From Enterobacteria phage SfI, in sequence record JX509734: DNA of 38,389 nt. One strand, written 5' to 3'. A program made the position numbers and the translations under genes. A model generated the notes under the pieces. The model did no database searches and was not told the DNA's origin. It saw nothing but the letters and a program-made list of their open reading frames with translations. Shown here piece after piece: positions 5,811-38,389 of this stretch (position 1 is its first letter; the number at the start of each line of letters is the position of its first letter).

Positions 5811-6163
5811 ATGCTTCTGACAATGGAAGAGATTAAAGCCCAACTCCGGCTGGATGAGGATTTCGATGCTGATGACGGCTGGATGAGGATTTCGATGCTG
5901 ATGCCCGCCATCTGCAACTGCTGGCCTGTGCGGCGCAAAAGCGGACGGAAACGTATCTGAACCGGAAGCTCTATGCTCCGGATGAAACCATTCCGGACAG
6001 CGATCCGGACGGGCTGCACCTGCCGGATGATATTCGTCTGGGGATGCTGATGCTTATCAGCCATTTTTACGAAAATCGCTCGTCGGTTACAGACGTTGAG
6101 AAAATGGAGTTGCCAATGAGCTTTAACTGGCTTGTCGGCCCGTACAGGTATTTCCCGCAATGA
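5811..6163 (+). pseudogene. Head-tail connector (gp6-like) gene disrupted by a 29-bp tandem duplication
   Basis: ATG at 5811 with GAGGG RBS. The 28-mer CGGCTGGATGAGGATTTCGATGCTGATG occurs at 5847-5874 and again at 5876-5903 (period 29). As written the frame stops at 5958-5960 (49 aa). Removing one copy gives a continuous gp6-like ORF (MLLTMEEIKAQLRLDEDFDAD...SFNWLVGPYRYFPQ) ending at 6163 with ATGA coupling to the next gene. Confidence 0.6.
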
Positions 6164-6570
6164 AAATTCGTCAGGCGCAGACCAGCGCAACCTACATTCT
6201 GCCGGACCCCGGTGAACTGAATAAACGCGTCCTGATCCGCCAGCGGGTGGATATGCCCGCGGATAACTTTGGCGTGGAGCCTCAATACCCGGTTGCGTTC
6301 CGGACATGGGCGAAGGTTGTCCAGACCAGTGCCACCACCTGGCAGGAAACCGCGCAGACCGGGGACGCCATCACCCATTACATCACCATTCGTTACCGCC
6401 GGGGGATCACCGCTGATTATGAGGTGGTCTGCGGTGACAGTGTGTACCGGGTGAAACGTCAGCGCGATCTGAACGGGGCGCGGCGCTTTCTGCTGCTGGA
6501 GTGTACGGAGCTGGGCGAATGTAGGCAGAGTCACGGAGGCAACAATGACGACTTCCTTTTTGCACGTTGA
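6160..6570 (+). CDS. Head closure / head-tail joining protein
   Basis: 136-aa ORF, ATGA-coupled to the connector frame; position in the head-tail adaptor block. Confidence 0.65.
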   Translation: MKIRQAQTSATYILPDPGELNKRVLIRQRVDMPADNFGVEPQYPVAFRTWAKVVQTSATTWQETAQTGDAITHYITIRYRRGITADYEVVCGDSVYRVKRQRDLNGARRFLLLECTELGECRQSHGGNNDDFLFAR

Positions 6571-7787: not shown

Positions 7788-9267
7788 CACCATTCCGTCG
7801 AATACGCTGGTTCCGTTGTTTTATGCGGAAATGGATAACCAGGCGGCGAATACTGCACAGGACAGCGGAGCATCGCTGCTGATTGGTCATGCCAATAACG
7901 GTGCAGAGATTGTTGCCAACAGTCTGGTGCTGATGCCATCGGCAGACTATGCACGCCAGATTTGTGGTGCGGGAAGTCAGCTGGCGCGTATGGTCGAGGC
8001 TTATCGCCAGACCGACCCGTTTGGTGAACTGTATGTGATTGCCGTTCCTGAATCCACGGGCGCGGCGGCAACAGTTACGCTGACGGTGACCGGCGCGGCA
8101 ACCGAAACCGGCACGGTGAATGTTTATGTGGGACGTACCCGCGTGCAGGCACCGGTGACCAACGGCGATAACGTCGCGACGATTGCCAGCAGTATCCAGG
8201 ATGCCATCAATGCCGTTCCGACCCTGCCGTTTACGGCTTCATCTTCGGCAGGCGTGGTCACACTGACCGCGCGTCATAAGGGGCTTTGCGGGAATGAAAT
8301 TCCTGTCAGCCTCAATTACTACGGCTTTGGTGGGGGCGAAGTGCTGCCAGCGGGCGTACAGATTGCCGTGGCGACGGGTACCGCCGGAACGGGCGCTCCT
8401 GTTCTCACCGGCGCGGTGGCTGCAATGGCGGATGAGCCGTTTGATTATATCGGCCTGCCGTTCAACGACACGGCCTCCGTTAACACGCTGGTGACCGAGA
8501 TGAACGATACCAGCGGTCGCTGGAGCTATGCGCGTCAGCTGTATGGTCATGTGTACACGGCAAAGATCGGCACGCTGTCAGAACTGGTGACCGCAGGTGA
8601 CCAGTTTAACCAGCAGCACATTACCCTGGCGGGATACGAAAAAGAGACCCAGACGCCTGCCGACGAGCTGGCGGCAAGCCGTACCGCCCGCGCAGCGGTG
8701 TTTATTCGCAACGATCCGGCACGTCCCACGCAGACCGGTGAGCTGGTGGGTATGCTGCCTGCGCCGAAGGGGAAACGGTTCACGATGACCGAACAACAGA
8801 CCCTGCTGTCTCATGGCGTGGCAACGGCGTATGTCGAAAGCGGGGTGCTGCGCATTCAGCGTGATGTCACCACGTACAGGAAAAACGCTTACGGTGTTGC
8901 GGATAACAGCTACCTCGACAGCGAGACGCTGCATACCAGCGCGTATGTACTGCGCAAACTGAAATCCGTCATTACCAGTAAGTACGGGCGTCACAAGCTT
9001 GCCAGCGACGGTACCCGCTTTGGTCCCGGTCAGGCGATTGTCACCCCGGCGGTGATCAAAGGGGAACTGCTGGCAACCTACCGTCAGCTTGAGCGTGCGG
9101 GGATCGTGGAAAACTACGAACTTTTTAAGCAGTACCTGGTTGTGGAGCGTGATGCCAGCGATCCGAACCGCCTGAACACGCTGTTCCCGCCTGACTATGT
9201 TAACCAGTTGCGTGTCTTTGCCGTGGTTAACCAGTTCCGTCTTCAGTATTCAGAGGAGTCCGCATAA
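7771..9267 (+). CDS. Contractile tail sheath protein (Mu gpL-like)
   Basis: 498-aa ORF followed immediately by a tube-sized ORF; sheath-like size and composition. Confidence 0.82.
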   Translation: MTISFNTIPSNTLVPLFYAEMDNQAANTAQDSGASLLIGHANNGAEIVANSLVLMPSADYARQICGAGSQLARMVEAYRQTDPFGELYVIAVPESTGAAATVTLTVTGAATETGTVNVYVGRTRVQAPVTNGDNVATIASSIQDAINAVPTLPFTASSSAGVVTLTARHKGLCGNEIPVSLNYYGFGGGEVLPAGVQIAVATGTAGTGAPVLTGAVAAMADEPFDYIGLPFNDTASVNTLVTEMNDTSGRWSYARQLYGHVYTAKIGTLSELVTAGDQFNQQHITLAGYEKETQTPADELAASRTARAAVFIRNDPARPTQTGELVGMLPAPKGKRFTMTEQQTLLSHGVATAYVESGVLRIQRDVTTYRKNAYGVADNSYLDSETLHTSAYVLRKLKSVITSKYGRHKLASDGTRFGPGQAIVTPAVIKGELLATYRQLERAGIVENYELFKQYLVVERDASDPNRLNTLFPPDYVNQLRVFAVVNQFRLQYSEESA

Positions 9268-18226: not shown

Positions 18227-19747
18227 CTATAGGTTAAGTTTTTTGTTAAATACTAATATTACTCTTCCTTCAAAGTTCAAAACTTCGTCAGGCTTACCTA
18301 ATTGTTCTTGAATACCTGCAAGGCAGGATGTCATTTCTTTACATCGTTCAGGTTCGTTAGCTATGGAAACTGCTATAAACTGTCGCTCAGGAGCAGAATT
18401 GAACGCCTCCTTGCTATGCCAAGAAGCCAGTGTCTGTTGTCTCACGCCAGTAAAGTTAATTTTCCCCGAATCAGCATTAAAGAAAACAGGAGTTATCTGT
18501 ATGTCCCCACCAGATAACCAATTTACAGTCATTGACAAATCCCAAAAAGAGCCGTACCCATAATGGAGATTATTTTTTTTTAAAAAATCAATGTATGATT
18601 TAACAATCTTCTCCTGATCGTGTAATGGTGAAGCATTATTTGTGTAAGATTTAATTGAACTGATCGAAAATAAAAATGCGATTAGATAAAATAATATCTT
18701 TGCTTTTGTTGATGTACCGATACAGCACAATATCAGTGCGAAACAGGTAACATTCATAAAGAAACGCATGCTAATATAATCAGGGGATTTATAGCTCAGT
18801 ATGAATGATGAGACAATACCTGCGATAGATAATAATGAAAATAACACAATATAAATACGGTATGTGTTTTTTTTATTGTCCGATAAAACAAACCACGCAG
18901 ATGTAATAATGGCAATGAACCAAATGACAAATGAGGCGTAAGATGTTGCGTTATTGTCGACAACTAATAAATTAAGACTTTTTCCTATTAACAGAATGCA
19001 CCATTTTGCATTTAAAATCATATCATTGAGTGATACAATTTCAAATTGGTGGGGAGGTATGTTAAGTAGATTTTGCAATACATTGGAAAGAGAGATTAAA
19101 CATGCAAATAGTATTAATGCAGTATGCTTAAATAATTTTTTATCCCATACAGAGAATAAAAAGTAAGATATTAATAGTGGAATAAAAAATGCAGCTGTAA
19201 ACCACGGATCGGATACGCTGGAAAATAATGCTGTCAAACTTAAGAGGAGAGTGATAAATATATTTTTATACTGTATGTTGAAAACAGATATAAGCAAGCA
19301 TAAAAAGCCGAAAGCGTTTGTTGAATTATGAGAAAAAGGATGTGATACAAAACCATAAGTGTATGAAAAATATGGTATTAGAGATAGAAGTATAATAGAA
19401 AATAAAGCAGGGGTAAACCCGAATGCCTTACGTAGCGTTAACATCGCTGCTATTACTATAGCAATAGAGAAAACTGCAGTTGATAATCTTAATGCTACTA
19501 AGCCATCATCACCTAACAGCATATAAAATAAAAAGTTAATTGGGTAAACGGTGAAATACCAATTATCCACGGTTGGTTTCCAGTCGTGGATTGATGATAT
19601 ACCATTCTCTAAAATATGCCTCCATACAATTGGGCTGTTAGCAACATCCGGTTCAACTGGAAAGTATCTGGTAGTCAACCAAGTTATTAGGAGTGCTGAT
19701 AAAGCCAATAATATTTTTAATGCTGATTGTTTAATACATATGCTCAT
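18227..19747 (-). CDS. GtrC-family serotype-specific O-antigen glucosyltransferase (polytopic membrane protein)
   Basis: 506-aa very hydrophobic, AT-rich ORF directly downstream of gtrB in the same operon; gtrC genes are the variable, serotype-defining member of gtr cassettes. Confidence 0.72.
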   Translation of the reverse strand: MSICIKQSALKILLALSALLITWLTTRYFPVEPDVANSPIVWRHILENGISSIHDWKPTVDNWYFTVYPINFLFYMLLGDDGLVALRLSTAVFSIAIVIAAMLTLRKAFGFTPALFSIILLSLIPYFSYTYGFVSHPFSHNSTNAFGFLCLLISVFNIQYKNIFITLLLSLTALFSSVSDPWFTAAFFIPLLISYFLFSVWDKKLFKHTALILFACLISLSNVLQNLLNIPPHQFEIVSLNDMILNAKWCILLIGKSLNLLVVDNNATSYASFVIWFIAIITSAWFVLSDNKKNTYRIYIVLFSLLSIAGIVSSFILSYKSPDYISMRFFMNVTCFALILCCIGTSTKAKILFYLIAFLFSISSIKSYTNNASPLHDQEKIVKSYIDFLKKNNLHYGYGSFWDLSMTVNWLSGGDIQITPVFFNADSGKINFTGVRQQTLASWHSKEAFNSAPERQFIAVSIANEPERCKEMTSCLAGIQEQLGKPDEVLNFEGRVILVFNKKLNL

Positions 19748-19749
19748 GG

Positions 19750-20670
19750 TTATTTTCTACCTTTCTTCAAAATATACTTAGGTCTTGATTTTGTTTCTAA
19801 GTAAATTCTACCTATATATTCACCGAGAACACCAATCCCGATCAGTTGCACTCCACCCAAGAAAAGTATTGATACAAGCAGGGAGGGATACCCGCGTACT
19901 GGGTTACCAAAGACAAGGGTGTCTATAATCATCCATGCACCATATAAAAATGAAATGCTTGCAACAAACAAGCCTATATAAGTCCATACGCGAAGAGGAA
20001 AGGTTGAAAAACTTGTGATACCTTCCAGTGCCAGATTCCATAATTTCCAGCCATTAAATTTTGAGATGCCAGCAACACGCTCTGCGCGTACATATTCAAC
20101 GACATCCGTCTGACCACCCACCCAGCTCAGTATGCCTTTCATGAAAAGATTGCGCTCAGGCAACAGTTTAATGTTCTCCACAACCTCACGAGACATGAGT
20201 CGAAAATCTCCGACATTTTCCTCGATCTTTGGGGTGCTTATTTTGTTGTGTAATTTATAGAACCACTCAGCTGTCTTACGTTTCAGTCGTCCATCAGTTG
20301 AGCGGTCTGAACGTTTAGCAAGCACCATGTCAGCACCTGCCTGCCACTTTTCAATAAGATGAGGGATAACCTCAATTGGGTCTTGCAGGTCGACATCAAT
20401 AGGAATTACAGCATCGCCGCTTGCATGGTCTAACCCTGCAAATAAGGCTGGTTCTTTACCAAAGTTGCGTGTAAATGACAGCGGAACAACTAGCGGGTCT
20501 GAAACAGCCAGCGCGTTAATAATTGACTCTGTGGCATCTTTACTTCCGTCATTTATGAATACAATTTCTACTTCATATGGCTTCAACTCTTGGAATTCAC
20601 GTACCGTTTTATAGAAAACAGGTATCGCTTCTTCTTCATTGAAGACAGGAACGACAAGAGATATTTTCAT
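19750..20670 (-). CDS. gtrB: Bactoprenol glucosyltransferase GtrB (GT2 family)
   Basis: 306-aa ORF ([17 protein letters not shown]...) with C-terminal TM segments; coupled to gtrA upstream. Confidence 0.88.
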
Positions 20671-21029
20671 TTCGCATCCCTAAAGACAATGAACTTTGAA
20701 TAGACGAAACCGCACACCAGACTGATGGCGGAGAAGGTGATAAGAGTGACTATTGGAGGAAGTGAGCATTTATCAGCTGCCCAACCAACAATCACACTCA
20801 ATATTCCCATAAATCCCACGTATAACATGTAGCGCATCGCTGTAGTCGATGCTTTGAATGTGAATCTTGCATTCGCGAAGAAGCTAAAGCTCACAGCCAC
20901 TACGAAACCTGTGAAGTTTGCCAGAGCCTGACTGGTATGTGCGGCATAGATACATACACCAAAAACCACCCAGTGTATAAGTGTGTTCAGCACACCTATA
21001 GATGTGTACTTTACAAATAACTTTAACAT
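20667..21029 (-). CDS. gtrA: GtrA flippase for undecaprenyl-phosphate glucose
   Basis: 120-aa four-TM protein; first gene of the minus-strand gtr operon. Confidence 0.85.
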
Positions 21030-21290: not shown

Positions 21291-22454
21291 TTACACATCA
21301 TTAGTACCTTCCTTATTTTTTGACTGGGACAAATTTGGGACCGATGGGTTCAGGATCGAGTCTATTTGCCGTGCGTGTTCGGTAAGGTGATTAGGTGCAA
21401 GGTGAGCATATCGACGAACCATTTCGATAGACTCCCAGCCTCCCATTTCCTGTAACACTGACAATGGGACTCCGGCTTGAACCAGCCAACTTGCCCAGGT
21501 GTGTCTCAAGTCGTGAAATCTGAAATCATCAATACCAGCCCGTCTCAGCGCCGCTTTCCAGGCTGTGTTTGCGTCATACCGCATCTTCCTTACTGTTGGC
21601 GCTTTCGTTCCGTCTGGTTTGGTACAGCTTTCCTTGTATACAAATACCCAACGGTGATGATTCCCGATTTGTTTTTTCAATACGCGACATGCAGTATCAT
21701 TCAGCGCAACGCCAATTGCGCGGTTTGATTTACTCTCTTCCGGGTTTATCCATGCCACCCGGCGCTGCATGTCTATTTGTTGCCATTCAAGGTTGATGAT
21801 GTTCGAGCGTCTTAAGCCTGTTGCCAGTGCAAATTCAACAACAGACTTTAATGGCTCCGGACATTCATCAATCAGCCTTTGTGCTTCATGAGGCTCCAGC
21901 CAGCGGATACGTTTATTCTTCGGTTGAGGCACTTTAATAATTGGTGCCTTATCCAGCATTTTCCATTCACGCTCTGCGGCTCTTAGCAGGGCCTTTATAA
22001 ATGAAAGATGCGTAGCCTTCGTTGCAACGGACGCTGGTTTTGGCGTGTATTCTGGAACAGGTTTCCCTTTTTTTCTGCATGCTTCTGCCCTGAGTTTCCA
22101 GTTTTCCTCATGACGCCGGTTCGTCATTTTCTGCATTGCTGAATAAATTTTTGATTCAGTAATGTCTTTTAGTTGCATTCCTGCGAAATGTTGAAGCCAG
22201 AATCCGATCCGGCTTTTGTCATCGTCCAGTGATTTTTTATGTGCTTTCTCTTCGAGCCACCTGACACACGCTTCCTCAAACGTCATATCAGGTATTTCAC
22301 CAAGTTTGCTGACCCGCCATGCTTCAGCCTTTAGCTTGTCATGGAGCTCTGTCGCCTGCCTTTTGTCCTTTGTTCCAAGAGACTGTTTAAATCTTTTACC
22401 GTTCGGCAATGTGAAACTGGCGTACCATATTTCACTTCTGCGGAAGAGTGACAT
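21291..22454 (-). CDS. int: Tyrosine integrase (P22 Int-like)
   Basis: 387-aa ORF ([47 protein letters not shown]...) with C-terminal [11 protein letters not shown]...RYAHL catalytic signature; adjacent to attP. Confidence 0.9.
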
Positions 22455-28380: not shown

Positions 28381-28815
28381 TTATTCTTGTTCTCTGGTCA
28401 AATTATATAGTTGGAAAACAAGGATGCATATATGAATGAACGATGCAGAGGCAATGCCGATGGCGATAGTGGGTATCATGTAGCCGCTTATGCTGGAAAG
28501 AAGCAATAACCCGCAGAAAAACAAAGCTCCAAGCTCAACAAAACTAAGGGCATAGACAATAACTACCGATGTCATATACCCATACTCTCTAATCTTGGCC
28601 AGTCGGCGCGTTCTGCTTCCGATTAGAAACGTCAAGGCAGCAATCAGGATTGCAATCATGGTTCCTGCATATGATGACAATGTCGCCCCAAGACCATCTC
28701 TATGAGCTGAAAAAGAAACACCAGGAATGTAGTGGCGGAAAAGGAGATAGCAAATGCTTACGATAACGTAAGGAATTATTACTATGTAAACACCAGGCAT
28801 GATTCTGTTCCGCAT
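28381..28815 (-). CDS. rexB: RexB, membrane channel of the Rex abortive-infection/exclusion system
   Basis: 144-aa polytopic membrane ORF immediately downstream of rexA in the cI operon; AT-rich. Confidence 0.85.
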   Translation of the reverse strand: MRNRIMPGVYIVIIPYVIVSICYLLFRHYIPGVSFSAHRDGLGATLSSYAGTMIAILIAALTFLIGSRTRRLAKIREYGYMTSVVIVYALSFVELGALFFCGLLLLSSISGYMIPTIAIGIASASFIHICILVFQLYNLTREQE

Positions 28816-28830
28816 AATTACTCCTGATAA

Positions 28831-29670
28831 TTAATCCTTAACTTTGCCCACCTGCCTTTTAAAACATTCCAGTATATCACTTTTCATTCTTGCGTAGCAA
28901 TATGCCATCTCTTCAGCTATCTCAGCATTGGTGACCTTGTTTAGAGGCGCTGAGAGATGGCCTTTTTCTGATAGATAATGTTCTGTTAAAATATCTCCGG
29001 CCTCATCTTTTGCCCGCAGGCTAATGTCTGAAAATTGAGGTGACGGGTTAAAAATAATATCCTTGGCAACCTTTTTTATATCCCTTTTAAATTTTGGCTT
29101 AATGACTATATCCAATGAGTCAAAAAGCTCCCCTTCAATATCTGTTGCCCCTAAGACCTTTAATATATCGCCAAATACAGGTAGCTTGGCTTCTACCTTC
29201 ACCGTTGTTCGGCCGATGAAATGCATATGCATAACATCGTCTTTGGTGGTTCCCCTCATCAGTGGCTCTATCTGAACGCGCTCTCCACTGCTTAATGACA
29301 TTCCTTTCCCGATTAAAAAATCTGTCAGATCGGATGTGGTCGGCCCGAAAACAGTTCTGGCAAAACCAATGGTGTCGCCTTCAACAAACAAAAAAGATGG
29401 GAATCCCAATGATTCGTCATCTGCGAGGCTGTTCTTAATATCTTCAACTGAAGCTTTAGAGCGATTTATCTTCTGAACCAGACTCTTGTCATTTGTTTTG
29501 GTAAAGAGAAAAGTTTTTCCATCGATTTTATGAATATACAAATAATTGGAGCCAACCTGCAGGTGATGATTATCAGCCAGCAGAGAATTAAGGAAAACAG
29601 ACAGGTTTATTGAGCGCTTATCTTTCCCTTTATTTTTGCTGCGGTAAGTCGCATAAAAACCATTCTTCAT
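28831..29670 (-). CDS. rexA: RexA, sensor of the Rex exclusion system
   Basis: 279-aa ORF (MKNGFYATYRSKNKGKDKRSINLSVFLNSLLADNHHLQVG...) downstream of cI; matches lambda RexA in size and sequence as remembered. Confidence 0.85.
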   Translation of the reverse strand: MKNGFYATYRSKNKGKDKRSINLSVFLNSLLADNHHLQVGSNYLYIHKIDGKTFLFTKTNDKSLVQKINRSKASVEDIKNSLADDESLGFPSFLFVEGDTIGFARTVFGPTTSDLTDFLIGKGMSLSSGERVQIEPLMRGTTKDDVMHMHFIGRTTVKVEAKLPVFGDILKVLGATDIEGELFDSLDIVIKPKFKRDIKKVAKDIIFNPSPQFSDISLRAKDEAGDILTEHYLSEKGHLSAPLNKVTNAEIAEEMAYCYARMKSDILECFKRQVGKVKD

Positions 29671-29782: not shown

Positions 29783-30499
<717 letters not shown>

Positions 30500-35114: not shown

Positions 35115-35157
35115 CGTTCTCAGTAAAAACCATTCCAGATCACAAGGGAGAAGGCGC

Positions 35158-35646
35158 ATGGGCATAAGAGAACTAAACCTCACCAAAGAACAGCACGAGT
35201 GGCTGAATGGCTGGCTTGAACTGTGGGGCGCATGGGTTTATTCAGGTCGTCTGGAAAAGCGCATGAGCAGCGTAATAGCTAAGTTCATGGAGAGCGTAGA
35301 GCCGGGAAGAGTTATGACAAGGCCAATGTGTAATGATGATGATGGAATGTTGATTTCTCAGGTCGTCGATTCCGTCATGTACATTGACAAGAAAGCCTTT
35401 GGTATCCTCCTCAGCTACTACGCCCACGGCTCTTCCAAGCACGCCATTGCATCTTACTATCATCGCGTCGCAAGACCTCGCAAGATGTTATGCCGGGGCG
35501 GCGGGCGCATTCAAAAACCATCGCTCGCAACCTGTCGACGGGAAGTTGACGAAATCCTCAATGCCTCGTTGTTTATGATTTACCCGGTTCTGGATAGTGC
35601 GTTTAAAAACCGGAAACGTGTAGAGAAAATTAAACATGTAGCATAG
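35158..35646 (+). CDS. Q: Late-gene antiterminator Q (non-lambda, phage 21/82-like type)
   Basis: Track ORF 35101..35646; GGGAGAAGG RBS favours the ATG at 35158; position after the nin genes and before the late promoter, tRNAs and lysis genes; the family call is from context. Confidence 0.55.
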   Translation: MGIRELNLTKEQHEWLNGWLELWGAWVYSGRLEKRMSSVIAKFMESVEPGRVMTRPMCNDDDGMLISQVVDSVMYIDKKAFGILLSYYAHGSSKHAIASYYHRVARPRKMLCRGGGRIQKPSLATCRREVDEILNASLFMIYPVLDSAFKNRKRVEKIKHVA

Positions 35647-35737: not shown

Positions 35738-35812
35738 GGGTCAGTCGTATAAAGGTCATTACGGAAGGCTGTTAACCTTCTTATCGTGGTTCGAGTCCAC
35801 GCTGTCCCGCCA
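35738..35812 (+). tRNA. tRNA, anticodon GTT by hand fold (Asn-like); slightly imperfect stems
   Basis: 75 nt with CCA end; perfect anticodon stem GAAGG/CCTTC with loop CTGTTAA, T-arm CGTGG-TTCGAGT-CCACG, one T-T mismatch in the acceptor stem and a 3-bp D-stem. Confidence 0.5.
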
Positions 35813-35817
35813 AATAT

Positions 35818-35893
35818 GCTGGTTTAGCTCCAATGGTAGAGCGGTCGCCTTGTAAGCGAATGGGTAGCGGTTCAAGTCCGTTAACCAGCACCA
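35818..35893 (+). tRNA. tRNA-Thr (anticodon TGT) by hand fold
   Basis: 76 nt; perfect 7-bp acceptor stem (GCTGGTT/AACCAGC), D-stem GCTC/GAGC, anticodon loop CTTGTAA, T-loop TTCAAGT, 3-prime ACCA. Confidence 0.72.
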
Positions 35894-36011: not shown

Positions 36012-36227
36012 ATGAAATCAATGGACAAAATCTCAACTGGCATTGCCTACGGAACATCCGCTGGTAGTGCGGGATACTGGTTTTTGCAGTGGTTGGATCA
36101 GGTCAGTCCATCACAGTGGGCTGCGATTGGGGTGCTTGGAAGCCTTGTGTTGGGCTTTCTCACCTATCTGACAAATCTGTACTTCAAAATCAGAGAAGAC
36201 AGAAGAAAGGCTGCGAGAGGTGAATAA
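36012..36227 (+). CDS. S: Pinholin S (phage 21 S21-type, dual-start motif)
   Basis: 71-aa [74 protein letters not shown] with Met1/Met4 dual start and two TM segments; matches S21 as remembered. Confidence 0.85.
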
Positions 36228-36724
36228 TGCCTCCATCATTACGAAAAGCCGTTGCTGCGGCTATTGGTGGCGGGGCTATTGCTATAGCATCTGTGTTAAT
36301 CACTGGCCCAAGTGGTAACGATGGTCTGGAAGGCGTCAGCTACTTACCATATAAAGATATCGTTGGTGTATGGACTGTATGTTACGGGCATACCGGAAAA
36401 GACATTATGCTCGGTAAAACGTATACCGAAGCAGAATGCAAAGCCCTCCTGAATAAAGACCTTGCCACTGTCGCCAGACAAATTAACCCGTACATCAAAG
36501 TCGATATACCGGAAACAACGCGCGGCGCTCTTTACTCGTTCGTTTACAACGTTGGTGCTGGAAATTTCAGAACATCGACGCTTCTTCGCAAAATAAACCA
36601 GGGCGATATCAAAGGCGCATGTGATCAGCTACGGCGCTGGACATACGCTGGCGGTAAGCAATGGAAAGGGCTGATGACTCGCCGTGAGATTGAGCGTGAA
36701 GTCTGTTTGTGGGGGCAACAATGA
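36227..36724 (+). CDS. R: SAR endolysin R (T4-lysozyme-like muramidase with N-terminal signal-arrest-release helix)
   Basis: 165-aa ORF with Gly/Ala-rich hydrophobic N-terminus ([18 protein letters not shown]) followed by a lysozyme-like domain; TAATG-coupled to S. Confidence 0.85.
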
Positions 36725-37164
36725 GTAGAGTAACCGCGATTATCTCCGCTCTGGTTATCTGCATCATCGTCTGCCTGTCATGGGCTGTTAATCATTACCG
36801 TGATAACGCCATGACCTACAAAGAACAGCGCGACAAAGCCACATCCATCATCGCTGACATGCAGAAGCGTCAACATGATGTAGCTGAACTCGACGCCAGA
36901 TACACAAAGGAGCTTGCTGATGCTAACGCGACTATCGAAAGTCTTCGTGCTGATGTTTCTGCTGGTCGTAAGTGGCTGCACGTCAAAGCAGTCTGTCCGG
37001 ACAAGCATAAAACCACCGCCGCCTCCGGCGTGGATGATGCTTCCAGCCCCAGACTTACTGACACCGCTCAACGGGATTATTTCGTTCTCAGAGAGCGCAT
37101 CGAAACCATAACTAACCAATTGAATGGCCTGCAAGAATATGTGAGATCACAGTGTTCATATTAG
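36721..37164 (+). CDS. Rz: Rz spanin, inner-membrane subunit
   Basis: Track ORF 36709..37164; ATG at 36721 overlaps the R stop; N-terminal TM helix then coiled-coil periplasmic domain. Confidence 0.75.
36914..37111 (+). CDS. Rz1: Rz1 spanin, outer-membrane lipoprotein, embedded in Rz in the +1 frame
   Basis: 65-aa ORF with signal peptide and lipobox LVVSGC followed by a proline-rich segment ([13 protein letters not shown]); wholly inside Rz. Confidence 0.58.
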
Positions 37165-37202
37165 AAAAGTCTTATCATAAGATTTTTGTATATGGATGCA
37201 TT

Positions 37203-37577
37203 ATGTCTCAATACGCTCACGTTGCTTTAATCGCTTATCATTTGGTGGCTGATAGCTCAATGACTCCTCGTGATGCATGGGATGCAGCTATCGCAGAGGT
37301 TACAGAAAGCGAATCGTCAAGAAAGAAGATATGCCCAAGGGCAACATTTCTCGCCCTGGCGGATAGCGGTTACCTGAAGAATGTAAAACCACTGCATGGG
37401 GAGAAAAAAGGCGGTAAGTTGTACCAAAGGGCAATTGAAGTTGCGAATCTGATTCTTGATTTACCCGGAATCAGTAAAGCTGAATTGGTTGATAAAACTG
37501 GTTACAAAGACAGGCAAGGGTCTTATGACCTGATTCTCGCTCTGTATCATCATGAGCAACTCCAGCGATCGGAATAA
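37203..37577 (+). CDS. Hypothetical protein (moron between lysis and packaging genes)
   Basis: Track ORF 37152..37577; start chosen at the ATG at 37203 to avoid overlap with Rz (37152 is also possible); followed by an AT-rich intergenic region. Confidence 0.45.
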   Translation: MSQYAHVALIAYHLVADSSMTPRDAWDAAIAEVTESESSRKKICPRATFLALADSGYLKNVKPLHGEKKGGKLYQRAIEVANLILDLPGISKAELVDKTGYKDRQGSYDLILALYHHEQLQRSE

Positions 37578-37694
37578 TTATCCCAGCATCAGTGTCAAAA
37601 ATAGGCAGTGATACGCTATTTTCCTGAAAATACTTTACTAACATTTTATGAGAATTATCCTAGTAATGTGTTTATTTAAAAGGAGTTTGGGTTT

Positions 37695-37898
37695 ATGAAA
37701 ATTCTCTGGGTCATCAGTCTTTTGTGTAGTGCTATTGGATTTATTGAAGGAATCCTCGGGGTTTTCGGTGCTCAGAGTGCTCCACAACAGGCTGCAGGTG
37801 CAGCAATGGGAGTAGCATGGGCAGTTATTCCATATTGTATTTGTCGTGCTATCCAACAATTGCGCCCTCGAGAAGTCATTATTAAAAAGGAAGAATGA
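37695..37898 (+). CDS. Small membrane protein (67 aa)
   Basis: GGAG RBS 8 nt upstream; hydrophobic N-terminus and a second hydrophobic segment; AT-rich; followed by its own terminator. Confidence 0.5.
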   Translation: MKILWVISLLCSAIGFIEGILGVFGAQSAPQQAAGAAMGVAWAVIPYCICRAIQQLRPREVIIKKEE

Positions 37899-37929
37899 CC
37901 AGATCTTATCCGGTGTTTTTTCTGTCTAA

Positions 37930-37951
37930 GCCTCGCGTCGCGGGGCTTTTT
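37930..37951 (+). terminator. Rho-independent terminator after the small membrane-protein gene
   Basis: GCCTCGC / GCGGGGC stem (one G-U pair) with 3-nt loop followed by TTTTTATT, 13 nt before the HNH start. Confidence 0.5.
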
Positions 37952-37963
37952 ATTGGAGCCAGC

Positions 37964-38314
37964 ATGCCACCACGAACCCCAAAAGCCTGCCGTGTTCGCG
38001 GCTGCCGCCATACCACAACTGACCCGTCAGGCTATTGCGAAAGCCACAAAAGTGAAGGCTGGAAGCAATACAAGCCGGGCCAGTCCAGACACCAGCGCGG
38101 TTATGGTTCGAAATGGGATGTTATCCGTGAACGTGTGCTCAAGCGTGACAAAGGACTGTGTCAGTTATGTCTGCGTGGTGGTGTGGTACGTGAGGCGAAA
38201 ACCGTTGACCACATCATCCCTAAAGCGCATGGCGGCACTGATGCCGACAGCAATCTGCAGAGCCTGTGCTGGCCGTGTCATAAGGCGAAGACGGCCCGTG
38301 AACGGTTGAAGTAA
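37964..38314 (+). CDS. HNH endonuclease (terminase-associated, HK97 gp74-like)
   Basis: Track ORF 37895..38314; start taken at the ATG at 37964 (GGAG RBS, downstream of the terminator); Cys-rich N-terminus and DHIIPKAHGG...N...CWPCHKAKT HNH motif; sits at the genome end opposite TerS. Confidence 0.8.
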   Translation: MPPRTPKACRVRGCRHTTTDPSGYCESHKSEGWKQYKPGQSRHQRGYGSKWDVIRERVLKRDKGLCQLCLRGGVVREAKTVDHIIPKAHGGTDADSNLQSLCWPCHKAKTARERLK

Positions 38315-38389
38315 GAACCAGTTCCCACTGCCAGAGGGGAGGGGCGGGTCAAATCTCTGTGACCTGACGTCTTCCGGACTGCCCGCCCC

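Follow-up and report, generated by a model that had tools for sequence, protein, structure and literature searches.

Temperate phages keep genes that change their lysogens, such as exclusion, defence and virulence genes, in morons. By the definition of Juhala and Hendrix, a moron forms a transcription unit of its own, complete with promoter and terminator, deviates in G+C content (GC) and is absent from relatives (PMC3594210). One such element, gene 15 of phage HK97, encodes gp15, a small inner-membrane protein that confers superinfection exclusion by blocking genome injection (Juhala et al. 2000; Cumby et al. 2012; summarised in PMC3594210). In phage phi80, the taiEcA/atiEcA pair is located upstream of the packaging genes and places a prophage-expressed immunity gene beside a Q-dependent counter-defence gene of the late operon (PMC11364771). 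The present analysis concerned an interval of 0.8 kb in Enterobacteria phage SfI (sequence record JX509734; the whole analysed stretch of 38,389 nucleotides (nt) is referred to as the window). In this interval, two open reading frames (ORFs), ORF1, a member of the DUF6979 family, and ORF2, which encodes a membrane protein of 67 amino acids (aa), are situated between the lysis genes and the HNH/terminase genes. As judged by comparison with related loci, the interval consists of two independently acquired accessory modules: the supposed two-gene unit resolved into a late-operon passenger (ORF1) and a delimited 330-bp cassette (ORF2). The ORF2 cassette qualifies as a moron by the published definition, with a promoter that is a candidate only.

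The closest functional and architectural match to ORF2 appears to be the HK97 gene 15 moron. Both are small cassettes in a late operon with their own terminator, deviating GC and a membrane protein of approximately 60-70 aa, and relatives of ORF2 occupy sites equivalent to those of HK97 morons (upstream of the tape-measure gene, and in the K-I interval of the tail genes). The terminator of HK97 gene 15 is annotated, while its promoter follows from the moron definition (PMC3594210). However, gp15 looks, on inspection of its sequence by eye, like one hydrophobic helix that continues into a long soluble tail; for ORF2, a two-helix hairpin is predicted, and the two proteins share no homology. In addition, the gp15 moron is located in the HK97 tail operon and the ORF2 cassette, in the window, after the lysis genes. 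For the slot itself, phi80 tai/ati is the closest precedent, with the same position and the same expression logic as proposed below for ORF2 and ORF1. Differences are the size of TaiEcA (26 kDa), the lack of detectable homology and the absence of phi80 from the tblastn matches of ORF1 or ORF2. Since ORF1 and ORF2 are not co-inherited, ORF1 does not qualify as a cognate antidote of ORF2.

Three further comparisons are relevant. In the DLP12 prophage of Escherichia coli K-12, ybcV and ybcW, which are similar in size (136 and 68 aa), likewise lie between lysis genes (essD-rrrD-rzpD) and a terminase remnant (nohD). A first-pass annotation of the window had pointed to ybcV/ybcW-like genes at this place. 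ybcV belongs to DUF1398 and is encoded on the opposite strand, ybcW shares no homology with ORF2, and BLASTP comparison of ORF1 with YbcV and of ORF2 with YbcW yielded no alignment, which leaves the K-12 genes as positional analogues only. Class II holins, such as the S21 pinholin (PF04971), are proteins of approximately 70 aa with two transmembrane (TM) helices, of which the second contains motifs of small residues, and with a C terminus that is charged. ORF2 resembles them in size, in predicted topology and in these motifs and is encoded in the lysis region, but it has no PF04971 match, has its own promoter footprint and terminator, and also occurs far from lysis genes. ORF1 matches the DUF6979 family over its full length and has the same stand-alone architecture of approximately 125 aa as hundreds of bacterial and archaeal clusters; the copies of the enterobacterial phage clade keep a fixed place behind Rz, in contrast to other members, which are dispersed over islands.

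Two modules in the slot between lysis and packaging genes

The slot, its flanking genes and the elements of the two modules are located in the window as follows.

36721-37164, + strand: Rz i-spanin gene, last lysis gene and left anchor of the slot (Pfam Phage_lysis, E 2.3e-39; phrog_13)
37165-37202, + strand: Rz-ORF1 spacer, 38 nt
37203-37577, + strand: ORF1, 124 aa, DUF6979 (PF22399; phrog_5039)
37578-37624, + strand: junction DNA between the ORF1 and ORF2 modules (blastn breakpoints, megablast break)
37625-37954, + strand: whole ORF2 cassette, approximately 330 bp, GC 0.40 (extent of homology to ORF2-only loci)
37634-37661, + strand: candidate sigma-70 promoter of ORF2
37680-37685, + strand: Shine-Dalgarno sequence AAGGAG of ORF2, 9 nt before the ATG
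37695-37898, + strand: ORF2, 67 aa, predicted two-helix membrane hairpin (phrog_12304)
37928-37955, + strand: hairpin and T-tract, predicted intrinsic terminator of the ORF2 cassette
37964-38314, + strand: right anchor of the slot, an HNH endonuclease gene that belongs to the HK97/P27-type packaging module (Pfam HNH, E 2.2e-16; phrog_144)

The first-pass annotation had described two genes between Rz/Rz1 and the HNH gene, an AT-rich spacer with a ribosome-binding site and a hairpin with T-tract directly before the HNH gene, and all three were confirmed. For ORF1, a mechanical call (37152-37577) yielded 141 aa from a GTG inside Rz; the true start was assigned to the ATG at 37203 because all homologues, the Pfam DUF6979 model and RefSeq begin there. 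The spacer between the two genes (37578-37694) had a GC of only 0.31, as compared to 0.45 for ORF1 and 0.44 for ORF2; the values for Rz, HNH and the window were 0.49, 0.56 and 0.50, respectively. Purifying selection was evident for both genes, with median pairwise ratios of nonsynonymous to synonymous substitution rates (dN/dS) of 0.26 for ORF1 (336 pairs) and 0.07 for ORF2 (444 pairs), each calculated from unique nucleotide sequences from fetched loci. ORF1 and ORF2 are therefore not chance ORFs. Antisense ORFs at 37638-37859 and 37772-38011 were rejected as spurious, since the sense ORF2 frame shows this low dN/dS.

The claim that the slot carries accessory cargo also stood when related phages were compared. 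In SfV the slot is empty, with Rz1 followed by HNH within 26 nt; in SfII it contains IS911 and a different gene; and in other relatives it holds a DUF6979 gene and a KilA-N gene. L148/149, too, differ from the window in the content of the slot. Among 94 related loci, the slot ranged from 731 to 5627 nt and contained dozens of recurring ORF clusters, which partly represent noise from crude ORF calling. On this comparative evidence, the slot between the lysis cassette and the HNH/terminase genes is a variable site for accessory cargo.

The distributions of the two genes were largely separate. Out of 5426 complete E. coli genomes, 249 contained the ORF1 region and 52 the ORF2 cassette, which was at least 99% identical in 51 of these 52 carriers. 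In IMG/VR, the two genes were adjacent only where ORF2 was 100% identical to that of the window, i.e., in a single, nearly clonal lineage of E. coli. An adjacent DUF6979 gene was missing from each of the 62 more distant ORF2 loci (at most 82% identity), and all DUF6979 copies at 88% identity or less were without ORF2. Homology to phages with only ORF1 stopped at 37529-37578 (blastn; the megablast break was at 37529), while homology to ORF2-only cassettes started at 37625-37651 and ended at 37896-37954 (for example, 37632-37954 for locus L004). On this evidence, the pairing of ORF1 and ORF2 results from one recent recombination event. The anatomy of a delimited cassette and independent modules is held with high confidence.

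These distributions bear directly on the alternative that ORF1 and ORF2 form one cooperating two-gene system, such as a defence pair or a toxin-antitoxin-like operon, that was acquired together. In favour of this alternative, the genes are adjacent and co-oriented with no terminator between them, and ORF1 of this lineage has a divergent allele at its 3' end, starting near 37529. However, adjacency in one near-clonal lineage contrasts with 62 ORF2 loci without DUF6979 and approximately 30 DUF6979 loci without ORF2, homology to each partner-less form breaks in the spacer, and ORF2 has its own promoter footprint. A cooperating pair is consequently considered very improbable. The two-gene moron of the first-pass annotation was thus retained in part: the ORF2 cassette, with its promoter footprint, terminator and mobility, corresponds to that description, whereas ORF1 rides with Rz, and the two genes are not one unit. 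ORF1 is not clearly a moron by the published definition.

Signals and mobility of the ORF2 cassette

Upstream of ORF2, a weak candidate promoter consists of a -35 element TTTACT (37634-37639), a 16-nt spacer and a -10 element TATCCT (37656-37661). This pattern occurred once in the window, with 0 occurrences expected from 100 shuffles. In the upstream regions of ORF2 relatives, the footprint TTTACT-16 nt-TAT(C/T/G)(C/A)T, ending 30-33 nt before the ATG, was present in 41 of 56 unique sequences; its -10 element varied only at positions 4 and 5, and its spacer was approximately 70% conserved. The Shine-Dalgarno sequence of ORF2 is a strong one and was retained in relatives as (A/T)GGAG.

Downstream of ORF2, the predicted terminator has a stem of 9 pairs, 6 of which are G-C (AAGCCTCGC / GCGGGGCTT, 37928-37948), with loop GTC, followed by TTTATT. 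Seven terminator-like sites were found in the region, as compared to 2.8 ± 1.6 in shuffled sequences, and the 37928-37948 hairpin was the best of these. A G+C-rich hairpin with T-tract, 18-32 nt after the stop codon, was kept in 49 of 57 unique downstream sequences of ORF2 relatives, in which the loops vary and a few stems show compensatory changes. The GC of the cassette is below that of Rz and HNH, and the same trend was seen in most relatives. An Rfam search of 36900-38389 yielded only noise.

Relatives of the cassette occurred in several genomic settings. In IMG/VR, 78 of 80 ORF2 loci were within 3.5 kb of an upstream lysis gene or a downstream packaging gene, with both present in 53, and these loci involved four kinds of lysis gene and three terminase types. 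Other relatives were located in tail modules. In prophages of Buttiauxella and Pseudomonas, they separate tail genes K and I; in Pantoea, the relative immediately precedes the tape-measure gene and has an antirepressor gene as a neighbour; and in Morganella and Edwardsiella phage Edno5, it immediately follows a gene for a tape-measure or lytic tail protein. In Ewingella, an ORF2 relative lies beside icd. Two of the tail sites (before the tape-measure gene, and K-I) match annotated HK97 moron sites, including that of gene 15. Taken together with the conserved signals, these placements indicate that ORF2 is a mobile cassette that travels with its own signals. ORF2 represents a new, well-delimited moron family, and the locus in SfI is ordinary but clean mosaic cargo.

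At the K-I sites, a second small gene was observed near the ORF2 relative. In Buttiauxella, a gene for a 111-aa lipoprotein (phrog_914) starts 9 nt after the stop codon of the ORF2 relative, and in Pseudomonas a 115-aa phrog_914 homologue is encoded approximately 400 nt downstream. The ORF2 relative and the phrog_914 lipoprotein may constitute a two-protein envelope module. In HK97 itself (L167), the 320-nt K-I gap (6013-6335) contains an annotated terminator and no annotated coding sequence. The K-I loci with ORF2 relatives are the following.

L028, 3582-4126: ORF2 relative with lipoprotein gene, K-I site
L029, 8001-8545: ORF2 relative with lipoprotein gene, K-I site
L030, 8001-8923: ORF2 relative with lipoprotein gene, K-I site

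The predominance of lysis-packaging sites (78 of 80 viral contigs), with many ORF2 copies directly behind spanin genes, would also fit a role of ORF2 as a lysis accessory, i.e., a holin- or antiholin-like timing factor or a spanin helper, and its size, two TM helices and charged C terminus resemble those of class II holins such as S21. This role is nevertheless improbable. The lysis genes that precede ORF2 copies are of four unrelated kinds, and other copies are found in tail modules, next to icd in Ewingella and in bacteria that are not enteric; comparison of ORF2 with the S21-type holin of the phage itself gave an E value of 1.9 (BLASTP), and no holin Pfam family matched at threshold. Moreover, the cassette has a promoter footprint and terminator of its own, and SfV lyses without ORF2.

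The varied settings are similarly difficult to reconcile with the alternative that ORF1 and ORF2 are both conserved structural or assembly genes of the virion, which the first-pass annotation had named as an outcome that would overturn its reading. Their position just upstream of packaging and head genes, on the late strand, is compatible with such a function. However, SfV, which has the same head, tail and packaging genes, has neither gene, the SfII slot has other content, the genes occur with lambda-type, DUF1441-type and HK97-type packaging modules, and their PHROG matches are to families of unknown function, not structural families. The empty SfV slot by itself brings this alternative close to refutation, and it is regarded as extremely improbable.

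The ORF2 protein and its possible role in the lysogen

ORF2 matched phrog_12304 (E 2e-44), a PHROG of unknown function that is not structural, and no Pfam family. Its 45 homologues, with 52-97% identity, were found in many Enterobacterales, and further family members occur in Xanthomonadales, Pseudomonas, Bacteroidota and Acidobacteria. Alignment of the family revealed the invariant core SAPQQAAGAAMGxAWAVIPYC, with P30, Q31, Q32 and P46 among its invariant residues. An AlphaFold (AF2) model predicted helices at residues 2-24 and 29-56, connected by a four-residue turn, with a predicted local distance difference test (pLDDT) score of 87. Positive charges are located at both ends of the protein (K2; R51, R57, R59, K64 and K65). 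In relatives from Dokdonella and Tahibacter, an N-terminal CxxC...CxxC zinc ribbon is fused to the hairpin (L027, ~7797-8174; L036 and L037, ~7800-8200). Because of the positive charges at both ends and the N-terminal zinc ribbon of these relatives, both ends are probably cytoplasmic (N-in/C-in), which would place the conserved turn at the periplasmic face.

The hairpin shape, together with profile matches, raises the alternative that ORF2 is a divergent VirB2/TrbC-like pilin of a type IV secretion system (T4SS), or a mimic of one, that interferes with conjugation or with pilus-dependent phages. The same two-helix shape is found in these pilins, and 36 of 41 ORF2 family members matched T4SS_pilin (PF18895) at E ≤1, with a best E of 6.5e-5. 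However, ORF2 itself scored 13.9 bits and the maximum among 11 sequences with individually listed scores was 19.9 bits, against a gathering score of 26.6 bits. Several distant members were without any PF18895 match, and a profile search of the Protein Data Bank (PDB) yielded no match for ORF2, with no solved pilin at E ≤10. ORF2 has no signal peptide, no T4SS genes were nearby in the loci examined, and Ala/Gly-rich, low-complexity TM helices easily give such weak matches. A pilin-like identity is therefore viewed as very unlikely.

The explanation that best accounts for the locus as a whole, and which is held with moderate confidence, combines ORF1 as a late passenger with ORF2 as a lysogen-expressed moron that protects the cell envelope. 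Host RNA polymerase would transcribe ORF2 in the repressed prophage, and the ORF2 terminator would block read-through into the HNH/terminase genes, while Q-modified polymerase would ignore this terminator in lytic growth. The product would be an inner-membrane hairpin that keeps both termini on the cytoplasmic side and places the invariant SAPQQAAG turn on the side of the periplasm; it would contact a membrane partner via this turn and the Gly/Ala-rich second helix. The benefit would most likely consist of protection of the lysogen at the envelope, i.e., superinfection exclusion at DNA entry, analogous to that by HK97 gp15. A further protection module of this kind would be in character for a phage that already has the lysogen-expressed genes gtrABC and rexAB.

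The components of this explanation differ in strength. ORF2 probably serves the lysogen rather than the virion. A function in superinfection exclusion, drawn from the analogy with gp15, is a tentative assignment; the repeated siting of ORF2 relatives next to tape-measure genes fits exclusion without proving it. A broader proposal, that the ORF2 family is a widespread new class of inner-membrane superinfection-exclusion proteins that block tape-measure-mediated DNA entry, is more doubtful. If true, the siting near tape-measure and tail-tip genes would be a direct functional link with the injection machinery, and the family would, by its spread and its zinc-ribbon fusions, be among the most broadly distributed small exclusion factors.

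Several observations weigh against lysogen expression and exclusion. ORF2 showed no BLASTP alignment with HK97 gp15 and no detected similarity to any characterised exclusion protein, and a search of PADLOC-DB 2.0 returned only PycC (E 0.026, 12 bits), which represents noise. The candidate promoter agrees with the consensus at 8 of 12 positions, under the scan threshold of 9, and was not called. Its conservation may partly reflect shared descent of the cassette, and the 100% conservation of the -35 element is partly built into the search pattern. Finally, the footprint and the terminator are missing in more distant ORF2 copies (Morganella, Edno5 and Buttiauxella); these copies look embedded in tail operons and may have a role in the infection cycle of the phage.

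A different function in the lysogen would be that of a membrane-active toxin or abortive-infection effector, which is harmless until it collapses the membrane upon infection. ORF2 is a small hydrophobic hairpin with Gly/Ala-zipper-like motifs, and weak, sub-threshold matches to effectors with 2-4 TM helices were found (S_4TM in 4 of 41 family members; CyanoTRADDas_TM in one family member and in a Pseudomonas relative); in addition, the phage already carries rexAB. However, no partner sensor gene was identified and ORF2 mostly travels alone, its promoter looks constitutive, and, apart from the PycC noise, no PADLOC model matched. The loop is very strongly conserved, which points to contact with a specific protein and not to damage of the membrane in general. 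An effector function is accordingly rated as quite improbable, and envelope protection remains the preferred interpretation of ORF2.

ORF1, the DUF6979 family and the phage genome

ORF1 matched PF22399 with an E value of 2.6e-28 and 99.1 bits (gathering score 27) over model positions 1-126 of 127, and phrog_5039 (E 8e-69), a PHROG of unknown function that is not structural; its NCBI annotation is DUF6979 family protein. The AF2 model (pLDDT 89.5) contained 7 helices, which suggests a soluble, all-alpha protein. No significant match was found upon structural comparison, no match to the PADLOC-DB 2.0 defence models, and no literature on DUF6979, PF22399 or the RefSeq protein accessions.

The linkage of ORF1 to Rz was consistent across phages. 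In nearly all of 47 IMG/VR loci, the DUF6979 gene starts 38 nt after the Rz stop codon, while the terminase downstream varies (lambda Nu1/gpA, DUF1441-type or HNH/P27). The same linkage is present in the lambda-like isolates 4C10, 4A7 and mEp460_4F5, and the 3' end of Rz and the Rz-ORF1 spacer are nearly identical among relatives. In the interval from Rz to ORF2, a consensus scan called neither a promoter nor a terminator on the + strand. Since neither signal is supported for ORF1, the gene probably depends on the Q-dependent, antiterminated late transcript and would be expressed only late in the lytic cycle. Two candidate signals were rejected. A promoter-like sequence found by eye, TTCATA-17-TAAGAT, agrees with the consensus at 8 of 12 positions and its -10 element is not conserved in relatives. 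The 13-nt palindrome TCTTATcATAAGA (37170-37182) in the Rz-ORF1 spacer was considered as an operator; it is altered in several relatives and is probably non-functional.

Beyond phages, a DUF6979 profile search yielded 524 representative clusters at E ≤0.001, and a second search 834 proteins at E ≤1e-5, in both cases from bacteria and archaea. Almost all members are stand-alone proteins of approximately 125-135 aa, with consensus SSRKKGCPRxAFLGLCExG...NGQMDVVxALW. The enterobacterial phage clade is a divergent branch, in which the second cysteine of the family is lost (FLALADSG instead of FLGLCExG). In eight annotated contexts of distant members, defence islands and mobile elements were frequent: DUF6979 genes were located between Zorya genes (ZorB/C/D) and GmrSD, upstream of an McrBC-like pair, after an HNH gene, among toxin-antitoxin genes and in an archaeal integrated element. 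An association with nucleases, which these eight contexts had suggested, was not supported in a sample of 112 metagenomic loci and was dropped as a firm claim. A Pfam scan of the 150 closest of 176 flanking ORFs from these loci revealed no dominant neighbour family; the top family, a RecG-like helicase, accounted for 4-5 neighbours, which are partly duplicates.

Some individual DUF6979 loci and proteins were distinctive. Metagenomic locus L171 (1-9243) is a defence island with, in this order, an OmpA-like ZorB, an EH_Signature ZorC, an SNF2/Mrr ZorD, DUF6979, GmrSD and an integrase, in which gaps of 70 nt and 11 nt separate the DUF6979 gene from ZorD and GmrSD, respectively. Protein P0146 (476 aa), from the search for representative clusters, is a rare case in which DUF6979 is fused to a further domain; this C-terminal part of approximately 340 aa has no Pfam match, and a PD-(D/E)XK-like motif (PDFLV...VEVYT) was noted in it by eye. 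In the Enterobacter-type prophage L004 (1302-4035), an S-type pyocin DNase and its immunity gene follow Q; in its close relatives L005/L065 (3379-4035), DUF6979 takes the place of the DNase, 22 nt upstream of the orphan immunity gene. In L084/L163 (IMGVR_UViG_2879736954_000001), which belong to a 99.5% identical phage type, DUF6979 and HNH are each split into two ORFs, probably as a result of prophage decay or of sequencing frameshifts.

The island contexts are relevant to the alternative that ORF1 is a late counter-defence or self-immunity protein, with a logic as in phi80 AtiEcA, or another defence-related DNA-binding factor. ORF1 is co-oriented in the late operon, in the same slot as phi80 ati (PMC11364771), and distant homologues occur in defence islands and mobile elements. 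However, no partner dominated among the 150 nearest neighbours in the 112 metagenomic loci, and the defence-like ones were scattered; no PADLOC or significant structural match was obtained; phi80 was not among the ORF1 tblastn matches; and a manual residue count showed the protein to be charge-neutral, and thus no obvious DNA mimic. A late counter-defence or DNA-binding function is assigned low confidence. The defence link of DUF6979 is treated as a lead only, and a nucleic-acid-binding or defence-related accessory role is weakly favoured for ORF1 in its position as a late passenger.

The window (1-38389) represents the complete genome of an SfII/SfV-like temperate myovirus in packaged order, from TerS_P27 (42-545) to HNH (37964-38314). 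Its head genes are HK97-like, its tail is contractile and its early region is lambdoid. In comparison with the serotype-converting Shigella phage SfII, the left 22.5 kb showed 98.3% identity, with 92% of the length of this part covered. The ORF1/ORF2 region is located at the extreme right end of the late operon, directly 5' of the packaging genes; in an identical prophage, P27-family TerS and TerL come after the HNH gene. Rz carries the RefSeq label lysis protein. The remaining features between Q and the slot are the following.

35155-35646: antiterminator Q
35738-35893: tRNA-Asn (GTT) and tRNA-Thr (TGT), between Q and the holin gene
36012-36227: P21-type holin
36227-36724: phage lysozyme
36914-37111: Rz1 lipoprotein, with lipobox VVSGC, embedded in Rz

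Two further accessory modules were identified on the - strand. Next to the integrase, 18227-21029 and 21291-22454 encode gtrA (GtrA_DPMS_TM), gtrB (Glycos_transf_2) and a gtrC-like gene, which constitute an O-antigen serotype-conversion module. The gtrC-like product (506 aa) has no Pfam match and differs from those of SfII and SfV, whose matches cover 75-92% of the stretch. Beside a cI-like repressor gene (29783-30496), 28381-29670 contains full-length rexB (E 8.5e-92) and rexA (E 1e-97), a lambda-type Rex abortive-infection module in an SfV-like phage.

If neither gene has a phenotype, the locus stays ordinary mosaic cargo. The phage DUF6979 copy behind Rz provides a tractable entry to a bacterial and archaeal family. 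The 67-aa membrane protein encoded by the ORF2 cassette is under very strong constraint and has moved among the canonical moron sites in many prophages of Enterobacterales. As such, ORF2 is a small, self-contained and easily testable candidate for superinfection exclusion, and a positive result would add a new exclusion family.

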